Sequence record: OZ035771.1
Source: Phapecoctavirus DIJ07P2
DNA length: 64,000 bases
Strand: one strand, 5' to 3'
Shown one piece after another: positions 26,766 through 63,936 of this stretch; position 1 is the first letter of the stretch; each line of letters opens with the position of its first letter. Below the pieces are notes generated by a model. It ran no database searches and was not told the origin of the DNA. It saw nothing but the letters and a program-made list of their open reading frames with translations. A program made the translations under genes and the position numbers.

Positions 26766-27437
26766 TCAATAACCTCCTTCGTAAGGTTTCACCTTAGCCC
26801 TATCATAATATAACATCTCTGCCTCCTTCCGTTTACGAATAGCTTCTTCTTTACTGTTACCATAGTATAAACTAATATGCTCTCCATTGACTCGGATGTA
26901 TGCAATCCATTTGCCCCTATCTTTTCTGTATTTTACCCCACAAATACCGGATAGATTATCTTTCCTTAGTTTTTGATCATAAGATTGCATTGCGAGTGAA
27001 GCCCACTCACAGGTTTCTTTGCTATAAACATCAGCAGAATTAATTCTGTTTAAGGTTGTGTTTTGTGGTCTACTACCCATATCCTCAACGAAATTCAAAA
27101 AACCTAAGTCCCCCTTCTCTAACCATCTACAGCATACAGAAACTCCACTACCTCCATACTTAGGATAATTCGGTGAGTTCTCATTGGTGCACCTGTCTAT
27201 CATGGCATTGTAGGAATTATATGTATATCTATCCTCAATGAACTTGTAATGGTAACGCTCACAACCACAAGATTTAGTTTTACCAGATTTTAATCTTTCG
27301 GCTGTAGTAACAAACTTCTCACCGCAATGACAAATACAATTCCATTTTGTAGATCGTCCAGTCTCCTTAATTGCTACATCAAGAACTGTTATACCATTGA
27401 ATACCATTCCAGACAGGTTTTCTAATTTCCTCCCCAT
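26766..27437 (-). CDS. homing-endonuclease-like protein with AP2 domains
   Basis: Cys cluster WNCICHCG..KSCGC, VSVCCRW segment, GVKYRKDRGKWIAYIRVNGEHISLYYGNSKEEA AP2 module; start trimmed to ATG 27437. Confidence 0.55.
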   Translation of the reverse strand: MGRKLENLSGMVFNGITVLDVAIKETGRSTKWNCICHCGEKFVTTAERLKSGKTKSCGCERYHYKFIEDRYTYNSYNAMIDRCTNENSPNYPKYGGSGVSVCCRWLEKGDLGFLNFVEDMGSRPQNTTLNRINSADVYSKETCEWASLAMQSYDQKLRKDNLSGICGVKYRKDRGKWIAYIRVNGEHISLYYGNSKEEAIRKRKEAEMLYYDRAKVKPYEGGY

Positions 27438-27438
27438 A

Positions 27439-28374
27439 CTATTCCTCAAAAGGTTTAAGTAAGTGTTTATTAGCGTGGAATCTTTTGATGTAATCATCTT
27501 CTCCCATACTTTCATAAAGCTTCATCACGACATGGAAGGATTCATAGGCATATTCACGAAACCAACCACTAGTGATAGATGTGCAAACTTTAGATAAAGC
27601 CATCATAAAACTTTGCTTAGGTGTTGGACCTCCGATCTCTTCACCGAAAGGAATTTGTGAACGTTCCAAAGCCAAAACACACGCTTCTTCATAAACACCT
27701 AACAGGCGCACATGTTTTGGTTGAGCAAAAAACTTTTCTTTGCTGGTCATAACTTCACTTCCATCTTTCATATAAGATTTATATGCTGGAGCATCCATTA
27801 CCGCGATTGCTTCATGGATAGAATCATGATCATAAACATACGGAACCTCATCACCTTTAAAGAAGTCTTTACTTTTTACGTTTAAGTTCGGATGAGAGTA
27901 AGTGTATGTTTCTTTCTCACGCAACTCATAAATACTCTTAAGATTTTCTGGGATCTTTGCGCCCAGTGACCGCATGAAATGAATATCTTTCATAGTTTTA
28001 AAGAAGTGAGGACTATCCTTTTTAAAACGATGACTCATTTTAAGAAGGTAGAGCACATCTAAAGGAGCAACAACATGTCCAGCGTAAGTTCGACGAACAT
28101 CATCAGAATCTTCACAATAACTAATCAAAGCTTCTGTGCTATCTCCTTGAGAAGCAATATCGTATTCCAAATGTGCACCAGCTATCATTTTGACGTGGCC
28201 TTTGTTCCCTTTACGTTCTACAAGTTCAACAAACTCGTCTTGAGAGAACATTTTTGATAATTCTTCCCACTCTTGTTCTGTACAGAGATAATCTAAATCT
28301 ACACAAGGGCGATACAAGTCTTTTCCCATGTCCATAGCATGAATTTGTAATGCACGGCTACCAATTAACACCAT
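27439..28374 (-). CDS. hypothetical protein with possible nucleotidyltransferase-like motif
   Basis: N-terminal LIGSRAL...VDLDY resembles hG[GS]...DxD of Pol-beta-type NTases but spacing is atypical. Confidence 0.4.
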   Translation of the reverse strand: MVLIGSRALQIHAMDMGKDLYRPCVDLDYLCTEQEWEELSKMFSQDEFVELVERKGNKGHVKMIAGAHLEYDIASQGDSTEALISYCEDSDDVRRTYAGHVVAPLDVLYLLKMSHRFKKDSPHFFKTMKDIHFMRSLGAKIPENLKSIYELREKETYTYSHPNLNVKSKDFFKGDEVPYVYDHDSIHEAIAVMDAPAYKSYMKDGSEVMTSKEKFFAQPKHVRLLGVYEEACVLALERSQIPFGEEIGGPTPKQSFMMALSKVCTSITSGWFREYAYESFHVVMKLYESMGEDDYIKRFHANKHLLKPFEE

Positions 28375-28464
28375 AATATTTCTCCTCTATTGGTTGATAG
28401 GTTAAGTTTATCAAGCTTCCAGATTTCTGTCAATAAAAAACCCGCCGAAGCGGGTTATTATTTA

Positions 28465-28737
28465 CTAACACATTGAGGAAGAAGAGATCCAAACACCTCT
28501 TGTGGTTAAACCATTTTCATCCAACTCTACACCATAATCTTCACAAATGAAATCAATATAGTGATCTGCGGCTGGCGTTCCTGTAGGGTAATAAGTTTCT
28601 CCGTTACCGTAGTCACCTATCCAAGCTTGTTCCTGAAACTGTTCACAAAGTTCTTCGATTTCCTTACGAAACTTTCTTTGTGCTTGTTCCATCTCTTTAA
28701 CTTTCTTTTTTATCAGCAGTTCGCCTTCAGACTCCAC
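28465..28737 (-). CDS. small acidic protein, paralog family B
   Basis: C-terminus RGVWISSSSMC. Confidence 0.5.
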   Translation of the reverse strand: MESEGELLIKKKVKEMEQAQRKFRKEIEELCEQFQEQAWIGDYGNGETYYPTGTPAADHYIDFICEDYGVELDENGLTTRGVWISSSSMC

Positions 28738-28746
28738 AATCTCTCC

Positions 28747-29007
28747 TTAACAGCTACTACTGTGCCAAACGCCTTGAGAATTAACGACGAAACCATCATC
28801 ACCTTCACCATAACAAGAAGAGGATTGCCAATCTTCAAAACAGATTGCGTTATCTTCTAAACTAAGACCAAAACCAGCATCTTCAGCTTCTTTTGTAAGT
28901 TCGTCCACTAAAGCCATAATAGCTTGGGCTTTTTCAGTTAATTCTTCAACATTACGATCACTCATTAGTATTTCTCCTCCGGTTGGAAAACTGAACGACA
29001 AGCCCAC
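28747..29007 (-). CDS. small acidic protein, paralog family B (two motif copies)
   Basis: internal EDWQSSSC and C-terminal QGVWHSSSC. Confidence 0.5.
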   Translation of the reverse strand: MGLSFSFPTGGEILMSDRNVEELTEKAQAIMALVDELTKEAEDAGFGLSLEDNAICFEDWQSSSCYGEGDDGFVVNSQGVWHSSSC

Positions 29008-29279
29008 ATACTAGCTTCTTTTAAATGTTTAATAGCACAACGGATTTGATCAATACGCTCGTATGCAACATCTAATTCTTTTTCTGTGCCGTCAAAAGAC
29101 CCATGATATGCTTCACAATACTCTTCCTCTAAAGCTTTGAAGATTAAACCTAAACGCTCTTCTGCATCTTTAATAGCGTTAACCTTGCCAATCTTATCGT
29201 CAGTATGCGCCTTATAACCTTTGATATCTTCGATTCCCACTTTACCTCCTATTAACAACTTAAAGAAGATGGATGCCAA
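28965..29279 (-). CDS. hypothetical protein (104 aa)
   Basis: track ORF. Confidence 0.4.
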   Translation of the reverse strand: MASIFFKLLIGGKVGIEDIKGYKAHTDDKIGKVNAIKDAEERLGLIFKALEEEYCEAYHGSFDGTEKELDVAYERIDQIRCAIKHLKEASMWACRSVFQPEEKY

Positions 29280-29449
29280 TTTGTCCCAGTATTCTCATTT
29301 TCATCTTCTGGATCATAATAACCACCCATCCCATATTCAGGGGAGAAACGGAAACCTTCTCCAGTCTCGTCTGCTAACTGCTCTGCTTCCGCTAAAGCAT
29401 CATAAGCTGCTTTTACGGCTTCTTCTACTGTTTTAAACTTGGTCGTCAT
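29252..29449 (-). CDS. small acidic protein, paralog family B
   Basis: C-terminus TNWHPSSLSC. Confidence 0.5.
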   Translation of the reverse strand: MTTKFKTVEEAVKAAYDALAEAEQLADETGEGFRFSPEYGMGGYYDPEDENENTGTNWHPSSLSC

Positions 29450-29723
29450 AAAATTTCTCCTCTCCTAAAGACATGGTGACATGAAATGCACGATATGTAA
29501 ATTCGTTGTCCGTTGTATTTGAATAAAACTCAAATTGAACAACACCGTCTTGAGAAGACAAATACATGCCAATTTGAACTGTACCTTCTGGTACTAGGTA
29601 AGCATACTCTGGGCGTAGTGTTACATTGTAAAAATAAAGTTCACCAACACCCATTTCATCCCAAGCTTCCCAAGCGGTAACGAAGTTACTTTCAAAACTT
29701 GTTACTGATCCGAACTCTGCCAT
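29433..29723 (-). CDS. hypothetical protein (96 aa)
   Basis: track ORF. Confidence 0.45.
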   Translation of the reverse strand: MAEFGSVTSFESNFVTAWEAWDEMGVGELYFYNVTLRPEYAYLVPEGTVQIGMYLSSQDGVVQFEFYSNTTDNEFTYRAFHVTMSLGEEKFYDDQV

Positions 29724-30214
29724 AAAACCTCCTCAATTTTGTAGTTTGACTCCATCTCCAACACATTTCCACGAACGTCTCTCCGAAGAAAGGCATAAGC
29801 TTTATTAGGTATTGTAGACTCATATTTAACCATATCTGGCACAGCAAAAGATACTACTACTCCTGCTGGGCTTCTGTCAAGAGCCTTATTAATATTTCTA
29901 AGGATATCGTTAGCCAAGATTTCTGCCAATTCTCCAAGAACAGTTTCTGTTATATCTTTATATCCCATTAAGTATTTGTTGATATCTTTCATCTCCGTAT
30001 TGTTCAGAGTATAGTCCAAAGGATAGAAATTCAAAGCGGAGTCACTTTTATGTGTCCACATGAAATGCACCCGATCCGAGCAGAATCGTAACCCTCTTTG
30101 AAGAATATCTTCTACAACAGGCAGAATTTCTTTTGTCACATCATTAACCATGTTGTAATCTAAGATTTCTGCCAAGTTTGTTCTTTGTTCACCACGTTTA
30201 CGTTTAGGAATCAC
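29702..30214 (-). CDS. hypothetical protein (170 aa)
   Basis: track ORF. Confidence 0.5.
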   Translation of the reverse strand: MIPKRKRGEQRTNLAEILDYNMVNDVTKEILPVVEDILQRGLRFCSDRVHFMWTHKSDSALNFYPLDYTLNNTEMKDINKYLMGYKDITETVLGELAEILANDILRNINKALDRSPAGVVVSFAVPDMVKYESTIPNKAYAFLRRDVRGNVLEMESNYKIEEVLWQSSDQ

Positions 30215-30809
30215 TTGTTATTGCCCTCATTACCAAAGGTCGTAGAAAATCGTAAATCTCTTGTTTTGTTTTCCCACGAATGTTTAAACAAGGAACATTA
30301 TTGGCTTTAGCTATCTTCCAAGCCGTAGCTGTTCCACCTTTTGCATCTCCATGTTTATCAGTATTAGCACAAGCCAACAAGAAACATGATGGAGCAGGAT
30401 TCTCCAAATCTCTACCTAACACTTGATGCACATTACGTTGGTGCAATTTTCTAGCACCCTGCTTAAGCTTTTCATAGGCTGGGTGAACATCTTTGATCCA
30501 TTGCACAGAGATAGCATAGTTCATTGTATCTGGTTTTGCAAGAACAATAACATCCCCTGGAATCTGATTACCTTTGAAATTTTCCCAAGGAACATAAATC
30601 TCCTTGTTAGTAGGATTTTCAGACTCTTGGACACCTGTTTCAAAAGCAGAATCACTACCCTCTGCCTTCCCAGACCTTAATTTAAACCCAAGGTTTGAAA
30701 GCCATTTCCCTATGCCTACCATCAAAGCCCACTCTTCTTCGGATATGTCTCTACTTCCAACTCCCGTATAGAACAGTTCTGCCATAATCACCTCAACAAG
30801 TAATTTCAA
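30204..30809 (-). CDS. Rossmann-like (DprA/SLOG-type) nucleotide-binding protein
   Basis: GVGSRDIS ... RSGKAEGSDSAFETG pattern resembling the GxGxR / SGxAxGxD signature. Confidence 0.4.
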   Translation of the reverse strand: MKLLVEVIMAELFYTGVGSRDISEEEWALMVGIGKWLSNLGFKLRSGKAEGSDSAFETGVQESENPTNKEIYVPWENFKGNQIPGDVIVLAKPDTMNYAISVQWIKDVHPAYEKLKQGARKLHQRNVHQVLGRDLENPAPSCFLLACANTDKHGDAKGGTATAWKIAKANNVPCLNIRGKTKQEIYDFLRPLVMRAITSDS

Positions 30810-61423: not shown

Positions 61424-61498
61424 GGCCCTGTAGCTCAATGGGAGAGCTGTCGGCTCATAACCGATAGGTAGCTGGATCGAAACCAGCCAGGGCCACCA
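61424..61498 (+). tRNA. tRNA-Met (CAT) or Ile2
   Basis: acceptor GGCCCTG/CAGGGCC, anticodon loop CTCATAA, T-arm GCTGG-ATCGAAA-CCAGC, A73, CCA encoded. Confidence 0.75.
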
Positions 61499-61500
61499 AC

Positions 61501-61575
61501 GTCTTTATGGTGTAATGGATAGCACAGGAGTCTTCTAAACTCTTAGTCAAGGTTCGATTCCTTGTAAAGACACCA
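61501..61575 (+). tRNA. tRNA-Arg (TCT)
   Basis: acceptor GTCTTTA/TAAAGAC, anticodon loop CTTCTAA, T-loop TTCGATT. Confidence 0.75.
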
Positions 61576-61771
61576 GAACATTTTAACATGAATTAGCTCA
61601 AGTGATTTGAACCCACTACTGATCATGGTGGCAGAGAATGAGGCAAGTATGTCAGACATTATAAACAAAGGCCACGGTTATATTAGAAGACATAAATGCT
61701 CGAAGAGCACTGTTCGTGGAGAACGGGGGTTGGTGGAGTCACCATTCATGGTAAAATGTTTTAAAAAACTA

Positions 61772-61800
61772 TTGACAACAAGCATTATTTTATGTTAGAT
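61772..61800 (+). promoter_or_regulatory. sigma70-like promoter for downstream tRNAs
   Basis: TTGACA 61772, 17-nt spacer, TTAGAT. Confidence 0.45.
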
Positions 61801-61809
61801 TATAAGTAT

Positions 61810-61900
61810 GGAAGGGCAAATCGACGTGGCGACGAAAACGGTCTTGAAAACCGCCGAGCTTGAAAGAGCCTTGGGAGTTCGACTCTCCCTCCTTCCGCCA
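61810..61900 (+). tRNA. tRNA-Ser (TGA)
   Basis: anticodon arm CGGTCTTGAAAACCG identical to enterobacterial tRNA-Ser(UGA); long variable arm; T-arm GGGAG-TTCGACT-CTCCC. Confidence 0.75.
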
Positions 61901-61905
61901 GATTA

Positions 61906-61991
61906 GGTAGATTGGTGAAATGGTAGCCACGACAGTTTGCTAAACTGTAGTCGGAAACGGCGTGTAGGTTCGAGTCCTACATCTACCGCCA
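61906..61991 (+). tRNA. tRNA-Ser (GCT)
   Basis: acceptor GGTAGAT/ATCTACC, anticodon loop TTGCTAA, long variable arm. Confidence 0.7.
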
Positions 61992-62121
61992 AGTTCTTTT
62001 TAATGTAGCTTACTTTAGCAGAGTAAATCTTCGGCAAGTGGCGGTAACCACTTTACCGATAACTCATAGTTAGTGGTGTGAACACTGGCTATTTTAAAAA
62101 GAATTTAAATATTAGTATTTA

Positions 62122-62209
62122 GGTGAGTTAATTCCGTAGGGGTAGCGGGGCAGACTGTAAATCTGTTATCATTGCGATTCGGGTGGTTCGACTCCATCAC
62201 TCACCACCA
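62122..62209 (+). tRNA. tRNA-Tyr (GTA)
   Basis: acceptor GGTGAGT/ACTCACC, anticodon arm GCAGA-CTGTAAA-TCTGT, long variable arm, A73. Confidence 0.7.
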
Positions 62210-62215
62210 AATTAA

Positions 62216-62301
62216 GATGAGTTGGCTGAATGGTTTAAGCGGCGGACTGTTAATCCGTGTTCGAAAGAACAATATAGGTTCGAATCCTATACTCATCGCC
62301 A
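62216..62301 (+). tRNA. type-II tRNA with Asn anticodon GTT
   Basis: acceptor GATGAGT/ACTCATC, anticodon arm GCGGA-CTGTTAA-TCCGT, 15-nt variable region, G73. Confidence 0.55.
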
Positions 62302-62308
62302 GAATTAT

Positions 62309-62385
62309 GGACTTGTAGAGTTAAGGTAAACCCCCAGTCGCCAATAGGCTTCTGGAATTGCAGGTATCGAATCCTGCCGAGTCCC
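62309..62385 (+). ncRNA. tRNA-like element without canonical anticodon arm
   Basis: acceptor-like GGACTTG/CGAGTCC and T-arm GCAGG-TATCGAAT-CCTGC, but no 5-7-5 anticodon stem-loop and no encoded CCA. Confidence 0.3.
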
Positions 62386-62391
62386 AGCATT

Positions 62392-62466
62392 GCTCCTATA
62401 GTATAATGGCTATTACAACGGTTTTGTAATCCGTGGATCTCTGTTCGATTCAGTGTGGGAGCACCA
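62392..62466 (+). tRNA. tRNA-Thr (TGT)
   Basis: acceptor GCTCCTA/TGGGAGC, anticodon loop TTTGTAA, T-loop TTCGATT, A73. Confidence 0.7.
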
Positions 62467-62741
62467 ACACAACATTAAGAGCACTGTGATTGATCGTCGT
62501 ATCCTGTGCACAAGGTCTGCTCGAAAGACAGTGTTCTTAGTATTGTGTTGATCACAAAAAGAGTCACCCGAAACTTGACCGGAGTAGGGTTGGATGGGGC
62601 AAAATGAGAAGCGGCTCTCCCATCGACAGCAACGAAGAATAATATTTGACTTTGGTTTTGTATTATTTTAAGTTAGCTTACCGAACGTAGGGCTAGTCAC
62701 CCAAAGGGATACTCGTCACTGTCCCACCTATTAAATAACTA

Positions 62742-62771
62742 TTGACATTCGATAGTAAAATGTAGTATAGT
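62742..62771 (+). promoter_or_regulatory. sigma70-like promoter for downstream tRNAs
   Basis: TTGACA 62742, 18-nt spacer, TATAGT. Confidence 0.45.
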
Positions 62772-62788
62772 AAATATATATATACAAA

Positions 62789-62865
62789 GCGTTATTAGTG
62801 TTAGCGGTTCAGCATCCCGTCCTTCCAAGTCGGTGGCATCGGTTCGAATCCGATATAACGCTCCA
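62789..62865 (+). tRNA. tRNA-Gly (TCC)
   Basis: acceptor GCGTTAT/ATAACGC, anticodon loop CTTCCAA, T-arm ATCGG-TTCGAAT-CCGAT, U73. Confidence 0.7.
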
Positions 62866-62963
62866 AATTATTTAATAAAGGGTTGCCAGAAAACTTTCTC
62901 TTTTACTAATGGTTTTCTCTTTCTCTCACACCTCTTCTGGTTGCCCTTCATTAAATGATTTAT

Positions 62964-63039
62964 TGGTTTGTAGTGTAGTCCGGTAGCACACGACACTTTG
63001 ACTGTCGTAGGTTTGGTTCAAATCCAGACAGACCAGCCA
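62964..63039 (+). tRNA. tRNA-Gln (TTG)
   Basis: anticodon arm CGACA-CTTTGAC-TGTCG, T-loop TTCAAAT, G73. Confidence 0.7.
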
Positions 63040-63083
63040 TATAACAAAGGTGAGTCACTACCTTAAGTGCGAAGTTAAAATAT

Positions 63084-63160
63084 ACAGCCTTTAGCTCAAC
63101 CTGGTAGAGTGCATCGTTTGGGGCGATGAAGTTAAAAGTTCGAATCTTTTAAGGCTGACC
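63084..63160 (+). tRNA. tRNA-Pro (TGG)
   Basis: C1:G72 acceptor CAGCCTT/AAGGCTG, anticodon arm CATCG-TTTGGGG-CGATG, T-loop TTCGAAT, A73. Confidence 0.75.
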
Positions 63161-63235
63161 AAATTACAATTCCATGCGTCTGACAAAAGGTTAGTCGGTA
63201 TAAGACGTGGGATTTAATACTTATAAGGAGGACTT

Positions 63236-63577
63236 ATGTATAAATGTAGCCATTGTGGTGAAGAAGATCCGCAAAAGTTCTACGGTCATAAGAAATCTAT
63301 TTGTGGTTATTGTCATAATAAGTATACAATAGACTTAGGACAACAGAAAAAGAAGTATGCTCGTGATAAGTTAGGTGGTAAGTGTGTTTCCTGCGGTTAC
63401 GATAAATATCAGGAAGCTTTAGATATACACCATCTTGATCCGACAATAAAAGACCGGAGTTTCGCATCCATGCGTGGGTGGTCGCTTAAGAGGATTGATA
63501 AAGAGATAGAGAACTGCATCTTACTATGTAAGAACTGTCATTCAGCTTTCCATTCTGGTCATGATATTACTTGGTAG
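63236..63577 (+). CDS. HNH endonuclease within tRNA cluster
   Basis: CSHCG...CGYCH...DIHHLDP...CKNCH; AAGGAGG RBS. Confidence 0.75.
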   Translation: MYKCSHCGEEDPQKFYGHKKSICGYCHNKYTIDLGQQKKKYARDKLGGKCVSCGYDKYQEALDIHHLDPTIKDRSFASMRGWSLKRIDKEIENCILLCKNCHSAFHSGHDITW

Positions 63578-63591
63578 TAATACTAATTAAA

Positions 63592-63665
63592 TGTTTCGTA
63601 GTTCAATGGTAGAACCCACGACTGATAATCGTGAGACACAAGTTCGATTCTTGTCGAAACAACCA
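63592..63665 (+). tRNA. tRNA-Ile (GAT)
   Basis: acceptor TGTTTCG/CGAAACA, anticodon arm CACGA-CTGATAA-TCGTG, T-loop TTCGATT, A73. Confidence 0.7.
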
Positions 63666-63667
63666 GT

Positions 63668-63737
63668 TTCCCGTTAGACTTACAGGATAAGAGATCCACA
63701 ATTTATTGTGACGCTGGTTCGAATCCAGCACGGGATA
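63668..63737 (+). ncRNA. tRNA-like element with degenerate anticodon arm
   Basis: T-arm GCTGG-TTCGAAT-CCAGC and acceptor-like TTCCCGT/ACGGGAT (1-72 mismatch), middle forms CACAA-ttta-TTGTG instead of an anticodon arm. Confidence 0.3.
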
Positions 63738-63742
63738 CATAA

Positions 63743-63821
63743 TAGCGGGATAGAGGAGTCTGGTCGTCCTCGCCAGTTTCATATGCTGGAGATCATTGGT
63801 TCAAATCCAATTCCCGCCTCC
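63743..63821 (+). tRNA. tRNA with CAT anticodon (second Met/Ile2-type)
   Basis: anticodon arm CCAGT-TTCATAT-GCTGG, T-arm ATTGG-TTCAAAT-CCAAT, A1-C72 mismatch, U73. Confidence 0.6.
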
Positions 63822-63936
63822 AAATATCGCTTGCCAGCGGTATCTTTGAAGACCTTGCCTGGTTCCTTCTAAGATGGAGGGGTGCGACTCCTTAACGCAC
63901 AATCATAATAAAACATTTCAAATTAACAGTATTTAT

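Follow-up and report, generated by a model that had tools for sequence, protein, structure and literature searches.

The MenT toxins are nucleotidyltransferases (NTases) that add nucleotides to the 3' ends of tRNAs under the control of a partner protein, and MenA1, the partner of MenT1, is short, is encoded upstream of the toxin, blocks the active sites of MenT1 and causes it to auto-phosphorylate an active-site Thr (PMC10435456, PMC11375011). MenT enzymes both transfer nucleotides and phosphorylate an active-site Ser/Thr upon binding of the small partner (PMC10435456, PMC11375011). MenAT and AbiE systems reside in bacterial chromosomes or plasmids. Other enzymes of the NTase fold modify hydroxyls on small partners, as in the pairs GlnD-PII, MntA-HepT and CitX/MdcG-acyl carrier protein, the last of these partners being a small acidic carrier protein that is modified on Ser. 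There are also carrier and tag proteins that are defined by a C-terminal motif upon which a partner enzyme acts, such as LysW (…EDWGE), ThiS/MoaD (…GG) and Pup (…GGQ).

The locus described here lies in a stretch of 64,000 nucleotides of Phapecoctavirus DIJ07P2 (OZ035771.1), referred to as the window, to which phAPEC8-like E. coli myoviruses of the genus Phapecoctavirus, for example Schickermooser and ukendt, are ~98% identical. Three small proteins, A, B and C, with a Trp/Ser-rich tail that ends in Cys are encoded close to the gene of an NTase-like enzyme. Firmly established are the existence of a real protein family, the invariance of its tail, its tandem expansion into paralogs and its near-exceptionless linkage to an enzyme of predicted NTase fold. 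Among known kinds of system the module comes nearest to NTase toxins that have a small protein as partner, but its sequence, its partner family, the copy number, the host (virulent phages) and the tail signature are all different. The catalytic motif hG[GS]…DxD and the downstream Lys/Asp pair of MenAT1/AbiE are also present in the phage enzyme; nevertheless, no sequence link to the DUF1814 (AbiEii/MenT) family was found, either as a DUF1814 Pfam match, a PADLOC match or a PDB sequence match, and the phosphoacceptor Ser/Thr in cis is not conserved. Furthermore, the phage partner family is unrelated to MenA1, carries a unique C-terminal motif and provides one to six partners per enzyme, and the module resides in virulent phages rather than in bacterial replicons. 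The partners of MntA, GlnD and CitX/MdcG are single-copy and without a Trp…Ser-Ser…Cys tail, and have no demonstrated homology to the phage module. LysW, ThiS/MoaD and Pup resemble the phage proteins in being small and acidic with an invariant extreme C-terminus, but they differ in motif, fold and enzyme class (ATP-grasp, E1-like, Dop/PafA) and none ends in Cys. A search of the literature and of annotations found no description of the small proteins, of the enzyme or of their association.

Organisation of the locus

Table 1. Features of the window, in order of descending position.
Feature	Position	Strand	Length	Description
tRNA cluster	61424..63822	+		10 genes (Met x2, Arg, Ser, Asn, Thr, Gly, Gln, Pro, Ile)
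DprA-like/SLOG-type protein	30204..30809	-		phrog_768 (E=2e-62)
phrog_4991 ORF	29433..29723	-	96 aa	overlaps the start of C
Protein C	29252..29449	-	65 aa	YGMGG type; tail W-H-P-S-S-L-S-C
Acb2/Tad1-hairpin gene	28965..29240	-	91 aa	GTG start; between C and B; Pfam PF24729 (E=1.3e-16)
Protein B	28747..28965	-	72 aa	short-tail subtype; internal EDWQSSSC-YGEG and terminal VWHSSSC
Protein A	28465..28737	-	90 aa	GTG start after AAGGAGA; YGNGETYYP core; tail G-V-W-I-S-S-S-S-M-C
Terminator-like hairpin	28439..28456	-		AACCCGCTTCGGCGGGTT then TTTTATT; intrinsic type; closes the small-gene operon
Sigma-70-like promoter	28405..28433	-		TTGACA-17-TAAACT, extended -10 TG; before the enzyme gene; 10/12 matches (consensus match only)
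Enzyme gene	27439..28374	-	311 aa	constant partner of the family; DUF7277+DUF7275; predicted MenT/AbiEii-like nucleotidyltransferase fold
HNH homing endonuclease gene	26766..27515	-	249 aa	77-nt overlap with the 3' end of the enzyme gene

The genes around the array are small, mostly unannotated and on the minus strand, and the block that they form is flanked by a DprA-like gene and by DNA methyltransferase and Sir2 genes. Judging from matches to sigma-70-like promoters, this block probably consists of early genes. All three minus-strand ORFs described in the initial annotation exist with the C-termini that it gave (RGVWISSSSMC for A, EDWQSSSC and QGVWHSSSC for B, TNWHPSSLSC for C). Nevertheless, B, which had been placed at 28747-29007, most likely begins at the ATG at 28965 (MSDRNV…), given the GGAGGAG ribosome-binding site that precedes this codon, the MSDRN start seen in all homologs and the RefSeq length of 219 nt. 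The three genes had also been described as adjacent tandem paralogs, which is correct as to paralogy and incorrect as to contiguity, since the Acb2/Tad1-hairpin gene separates C from B. Within the order C, Acb2-like gene, B and A, the genes overlap or are spaced by 9-11 nt, and the stop codon of the Acb2-like gene overlaps the start codon of B (TAATG); the Acb2-like gene is translationally coupled to B and is not a member of the Cys-tailed family. The terminator is also carried in the annotation of phage Schickermooser. Given that this terminator and a putative promoter lie between the array and the enzyme gene, the two halves are adjacent but separately transcribable in this phage, unlike in other phages, where they nearly overlap.

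Small proteins with an invariant C-terminal tail

The net charges of A, B and C are -10, -13 and -10 respectively (pI 4.0-4.4). An acidic helical N-terminal half had been ascribed to each of the three proteins; the acidity holds for all of them and the helix for A, where the AF2 model contains a long N-terminal helix (residues 4-34, pLDDT 94.5). In the same model the tail is folded into the domain as a strand (82-85) and a short helix (pLDDT ~88), leaving no free tail. Comparison with orthologs gives pN values of 0.11-0.20 and pS values of 0.6-0.86, those of C being about 0.11-0.2 and 0.7-0.85, and A, B and C are paralogs under purifying selection. Each matches phrog_899, a PHROG without known function (A, E=5e-14; B, E=9.5e-6; C, E=6e-13), as well as the family HMM built here (E=7e-17, 3e-4 and 3e-25 respectively), which finds A, B and C as the only members of the family within the window. 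Scans of Pfam, NCBIfam and PADLOC and a PDB sequence search with the family profile returned nothing significant for A, B or C, in keeping with the initial annotation, which did not recognise the family.

The tail occurs in a long form in A and C (Trp at -7) and in a short form in B (Trp at -5), the short form recurring in B-type orthologs, and orthologs of C likewise retain their tail. The tail Ser codons are of the TCN type in A and C (TCT/TCC/TCA) and in the internal copy of B and of the AGY type (AGT/AGC) in the terminal copy of B; since they are drawn from both codon boxes, the motif is conserved as protein and not as a DNA repeat. The expression W.{1,2}SS.{0,2}C$ matches 16 of 11,895 background ORFs in related loci; at that frequency, finding three of them within 1 kb far exceeds what chance would give. 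One ortholog of C, from a single 688-bp metagenome contig (P0013), has Arg in place of the invariant Trp (…NRHPSSLSC); the main alleles occur on hundreds of contigs and this variant probably reflects an error or a defective allele.

When 1.84 billion representatives are searched exhaustively with a profile (E≤1e-3), the family amounts to 571 clusters at 50% identity, with proteins of 65-200 aa. In the best 147 of these 571 clusters, the terminal Cys is exact in 141, position -5 is Ser, Pro or Ala and the mean net charge is -7; among the 141 Cys-terminal proteins, Trp at -7 is found in 140, Ser at -4 in all 141 and Ser at -3 in 140. The consensus consists of a helix, F-x-F, Y-G-M-G-G-x-Y-x-P, a variable acidic linker of 10-60 aa and G-W-x-[SPA]-S-S-x-x-C-COOH. 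Members thus share an N-terminal helix, a hairpin of the form F-x-F…Y-G-x-G-x-x-Y-x-P, the acidic linker and the tail W-x-[SPA]-S-S-(x-x)-Cys. A word-indexed search identified relatives in phAPEC8-like and T4-like phages, all of which keep the tail. A conserved tail of this kind had been singled out as unusual in the initial annotation, which proposed an HMM search with the three sequences: the motif does recur in homologs, and the four defining residues (Trp at -7, Ser at -4 and -3, terminal Cys) are conserved at ~100% in the 141 Cys-terminal proteins among the best 147 of the 571 clusters.

The B subtype is defined by an internal D-W-x-[SN]-S-S-C-[YF]-G-E and a terminal W-x-[SP]-S-S-C, a double motif that is also present in T4-like phages, from which the core unit of the tail can be defined as W-x-[SPA]-S-S followed by Cys within 0-2 residues. 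Given that both the A and the B paralog types are conserved between Phapecoctavirus and T4-like phages, the latter of which carry 4-6 tandem paralogs each, the paralogs are not redundant copies. The bodies, inserts and N-terminal extensions are highly variable in comparison with the invariant tail, and no known domain was found in the N-terminal extensions of the longer members.

Linkage to a single enzyme

Unrelated metagenomic members of the family have the same neighbour directly downstream, a DUF7277+DUF7275 protein of ~305-311 aa. In the window, the enzyme gene is the next gene downstream of the array and is of this type (E=8.7e-75). When viral loci are anchored on the enzyme, the HMM finds members of the family in 67 of 80, nearly all of them upstream on the same strand and within ~2 kb, and most of the other loci have divergent tails; the regular expression finds one to five tails within 3 kb upstream in 73 of the 80, compared with the 16 of 11,895 other ORFs given above. 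Conversely, among loci anchored on the family, that is, those found by the YGMGGTY DNA pattern and containing a family member, the enzyme is present in 22/22 with at least 3 kb of downstream sequence, and the 11 loci without it all have less than 1.2 kb of downstream sequence. The gap between the nearest member and the start of the enzyme ranges from -7 to 1621 nt, the smallest gaps being -7 to 15 nt, and the single enzyme is accompanied by one to five members according to the regular expression and up to six according to the HMM, one of which lies downstream. The exceptions are one phage group (L015-17, L026), which has an intact enzyme and no partner nearby, and distant enzyme homologs of Gordonia, Streptomyces and Vibrio phages, which have no neighbour that bears the tail.

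This linkage spans T4-like phages, phAPEC8-like phages, ~100-kb Pseudomonas phages and ~360-kb jumbo phages, which have little other synteny in common. The module is carried by 735 phage records, and a search of bacterial and archaeal representative genomes (185,579 species) gave nine matches, all of them MAG contigs; the module is essentially phage-only. Given that the family lies almost always just upstream of the nucleotidyltransferase-like enzyme, in one to six copies, the two appear to constitute a new two-part module of large virulent phages in which the Cys-tailed family is the variable-copy half and the enzyme the constant half. It is widespread in large virulent phages of Gram-negative bacteria, including RB69-like and other T4-like phages, phAPEC8-like phages, Pseudomonas, Acinetobacter and Aeromonas phages and jumbo phages. 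Every member examined, from the 571 clusters of small proteins and the >2,000 enzyme homologs, is annotated as hypothetical.

Features of the enzyme

None of the >2,000 homologs of the enzyme has been characterised. Its closest structural relatives are the MenT toxins, its relatives also including other small NTases (TM1012, ANT(2''), LnuA and poly(A) polymerases), and the model of the enzyme has an NTase fold of the MenT/AbiEii-like type. Comparison of 28 diverse homologs identified an invariant G5-S6…D26-x-D28 and E70, the signature of pol-beta nucleotidyltransferases (hGS…DxD plus Glu), and in addition K112, H115, D130 (≥90%), H183-D184, H187, E229-E230, E237-R238 and C264. From the pattern of these residues, rather than from superposition, the catalytic Asp, K112 and D130 would be equivalent to D41/K137/D152 of MenT1. 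Position 24, two residues before the first Asp and the site of the phosphoacceptor Ser/Thr of MenT enzymes in cis, is occupied by C, V, P, T or other residues and is not conserved. No HD-domain proteins were found among the structural relatives, so that its His-rich C-terminal lobe does not represent a canonical HD domain.

The residues that are invariant only in the clade of enzymes that have tail partners include S121-P-H123-F, K-E-T-Y-x-Y-x-H161-P and C264, and clades without such partners lack SPHF, KETYxYxHP and Cys264. These clade-specific residues are candidates for contact with the partner or for binding of a shared metal. The sole low-confidence segment of the model (pLDDT <50) is the loop of residues 165-171 (window about 27862-27882), directly after K-E-T-Y-x-Y-x-H-P; this loop may become ordered only on binding of a partner or substrate. 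The enzyme is acidic (pI ~5.7), as are the small proteins (pI ~4).

Possible roles of the tail

It is tentatively suggested that the tail is a site that is recognised, and probably modified, by the enzyme. The shared tail would dock in the active site, where one of the invariant Ser residues would be phosphorylated or nucleotidylylated and the nearby Cys would take part in the chemistry or in metal binding, and thus one enzyme could service several clients whose divergent bodies have different specificities. The genes would probably be expressed early from host-type promoters, in an accessory/anti-defence region of the genome. Recognition and modification are favoured for four reasons: first, one enzyme serves between one and six paralogs that are anciently diverged and separately conserved. 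Second, the small proteins are never seen without the enzyme where sequence is available, whereas the enzyme can stand alone. Third, the invariant residues of the tail are nucleophiles. Fourth, partner-dependent transfer to a Ser/Thr hydroxyl is already known in the MenT family. The intact catalytic motif with K112/D130, in an enzyme without the Ser/Thr that MenT toxins carry in cis, is also in favour, as is the lack of SPHF, KETYxYxHP and Cys264 in the partnerless clades. The near-obligate linkage to an NTase-like enzyme lends indirect support to the earlier proposals that the tail is a modification signal or a binding epitope; nothing was found in support of the anchoring signal that had been proposed alongside them. 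Nevertheless, plain modification of Ser leaves the mandatory and nearly always terminal Cys unexplained, the tail of A is part of the folded domain in its AF2 model, the enzyme and the small proteins are both acidic, a terminator and promoter split the array from the enzyme gene in this phage, and a few phages bear the enzyme without a nearby partner. In addition, the gene order, with a small gene upstream of a MenT-like NTase, suits an antitoxin-like inhibitor equally well.

The last point leads to the main rival, which is itself judged unlikely: that the small proteins bind the NTase non-covalently and switch off or time its activity, as MenA1 does with MenT1, the tail being a pseudo-substrate plug in which Trp would stand in for a base, the Ser hydroxyls would stand in for a ribose and the catalytic metals would be chelated by the Cys thiolate or the carboxylate. 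MenT toxins are the nearest structural relatives of the enzyme, MenA1 acts on MenT1 by active-site blockage and induced auto-phosphorylation (PMC10435456, PMC11375011), the gene order is that of menA1-menT1 with the genes often near-overlapping, and the strong acidity of the small proteins is that of nucleic-acid mimics. An inhibitor of this kind fits the gene order and the acidity, but it fits neither the multiplicity of the paralogs nor the internal copy of the motif: a single enzyme could do without as many as six types that diverged long ago and are each conserved separately, and the conserved internal W-x-S-S-S-C of the B-type proteins means that a free C-terminal carboxylate is not required. 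Furthermore, some phages and distant clades have the enzyme without a partner, bacterial chromosomes lack the module, classical toxin-antitoxin logic would be of little use to a lytic phage, and a terminator stands between array and enzyme in the window.

The small proteins could instead be specificity adaptors, in which the tail would tether the protein to the NTase and the divergent body would recruit a host protein or RNA for nucleotidylylation. The combination of one enzyme with many partners, which are invariant in the tail but vary greatly in body, inserts and N-terminal extension, would be expected of adaptors, as would the finding that the small proteins are never seen without the enzyme at loci with enough downstream sequence, and the presence of enzyme residues specific to the clade with partners. 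An adaptor role is nonetheless improbable for two reasons: first, neither the bodies nor the extensions contain a binding domain that can be recognised, and there is no known target. Second, two adjacent invariant Ser residues and a Cys exceed the usual needs of a docking handle.

An elaboration of the tail-modification proposal, to which only a small probability is given, takes the Cys into account: the tail would be an encoded substrate site for a new protein chemistry in which the MenT-like NTase activates Ser by phosphorylation or nucleotidylylation and the adjacent Cys then reacts, either by elimination and formation of a lanthionine-like thioether ring or to give a Ser-linked nucleotide or oligonucleotide conjugate. 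Tandem precursor-like genes would in this way yield several modified effectors, a RiPP-like logic applied to folded phage proteins in the course of infection. By analogy with lanthipeptides, activation of Ser followed by addition of Cys would account for the Trp, the Ser-Ser and the Cys together. The module resembles RiPP/lanthipeptide clusters in having tandem substrate-like genes with an invariant Ser/Cys site beside one enzyme; it differs from them in that the phage proteins are folded proteins of 65-200 aa and not leader-core peptides. Pfam and PHROG scans identified no LanB/C, LanM, LanKC/L, LanD or rSAM enzyme in the neighbouring genes, and the best match to a lanthipeptide precursor family was insignificant (NF038148, E=0.11, 12 bits against a cutoff of 25).

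Weakest, and highly doubtful, is the reading in which the small proteins are independent effectors (decoys, sponges or nucleic-acid mimics directed against host defences) that lie beside the enzyme through shared regulation or inherited synteny and bind a host target or ligand with their tail: an Acb2-type sponge gene is embedded in the array and coupled to it in translation, Acb2 homologs lie 5-6 kb away in T4-like loci, the proteins are small, acidic and probably expressed early, and the Gly-rich YGMGG loop beside the Ser-Ser could form a ligand site, but the linkage persists across phage groups that share little other synteny, no member is found without the enzyme where sequence is available, and no similarity to known sponges or anti-defence proteins was found. 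The small proteins are like the Acb2/Tad1 sponges in being small early phage proteins of the same operon, the interleaved 91-aa gene being a true member of the Acb2/Tad1-hairpin family, and unlike them in that A, B and C match neither PF24729 nor any sponge family. A counter-defence role is compatible with the embedded Acb2 gene and the genomic position, by guilt by association only.

The module ties an extreme and chemically suggestive signature, invariant Trp, Ser-Ser and terminal Cys, to an enzyme that looks active and is related to the tRNA-modifying MenT/AbiEii toxins. Modification of the tail would make the module a new system of protein modification in phages, whereas a tail that plugs the enzyme would amount to a new mode of regulation of NTase toxins and possibly of inhibition of NTase-based defences of the host. 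Under either reading, about four 'hypothetical' genes per phage become a testable two-component system in tractable E. coli phages.

Neighbouring genes and distant homologs

Candidates for a third universal component were rejected, the 96-aa, 170-aa and DprA-like neighbours each occurring in only 5-9 of the 80 loci. The 96-aa ORF of phrog_4991 lies just upstream of the array in 9 of the 80, including jumbo-phage contigs, and is an occasional extra member of the neighbourhood. The gene of the DprA-like/SLOG-type protein, two genes upstream of the array, is syntenic in phAPEC8-like relatives only. tRNA genes were likewise rejected as a fixed neighbour: the cluster in the window is 33 kb from the module and unlinked to it, and none lies nearby in 14 of 16 related loci. 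The Acb2/Tad1-hairpin protein is a homolog of the cyclic-nucleotide sponge of the T4 vs.4 type and closely resembles the products of vs.4-like genes in T4-like loci (E down to 6e-39), where the Acb2 homolog is found 5-6 kb beyond the enzyme on its downstream side.

The HNH gene at the 3' end of the enzyme gene is missing from this position in most relatives, in which megablast alignments start at window 27443-27499, and near-identical HNH genes lie directly downstream of the enzyme in two related loci (L071 and L088). In related phages the enzyme normally terminates in the residues with which the HNH protein ends here (…KPYEGGY), and the HNH gene therefore looks like a mobile element that has inserted into the end of the enzyme gene.

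Tk.1 of T4 (62 aa; tk.1, NC_000866 60346-60534, L176) has a weak match to the core of the family (LSFEISSEYGDAETYY, E=4e-4 in a small database) and no W-S-S-C tail, and the enzyme is absent from positions 50-100 kb of T4, including the region that is syntenic with the site of the module in T4-like phages. Tk.1 may be a degenerate relative whose tail disappeared when the enzyme was lost.

Shorter, distant homologs of the enzyme are found in Gordonia phage Toniann (gp16-17, L173), Streptomyces phage Circinus (gp181-182, L174) and Vibrio phage Va3 (Va3_098-099, L175), and no Cys-tailed neighbour was found beside these three. Each is flanked by another small protein of ~100 aa, and these proteins look related to one another (…G-Y-x-S-Y…E-V…T-x-Y) and may represent an alternative partner family.
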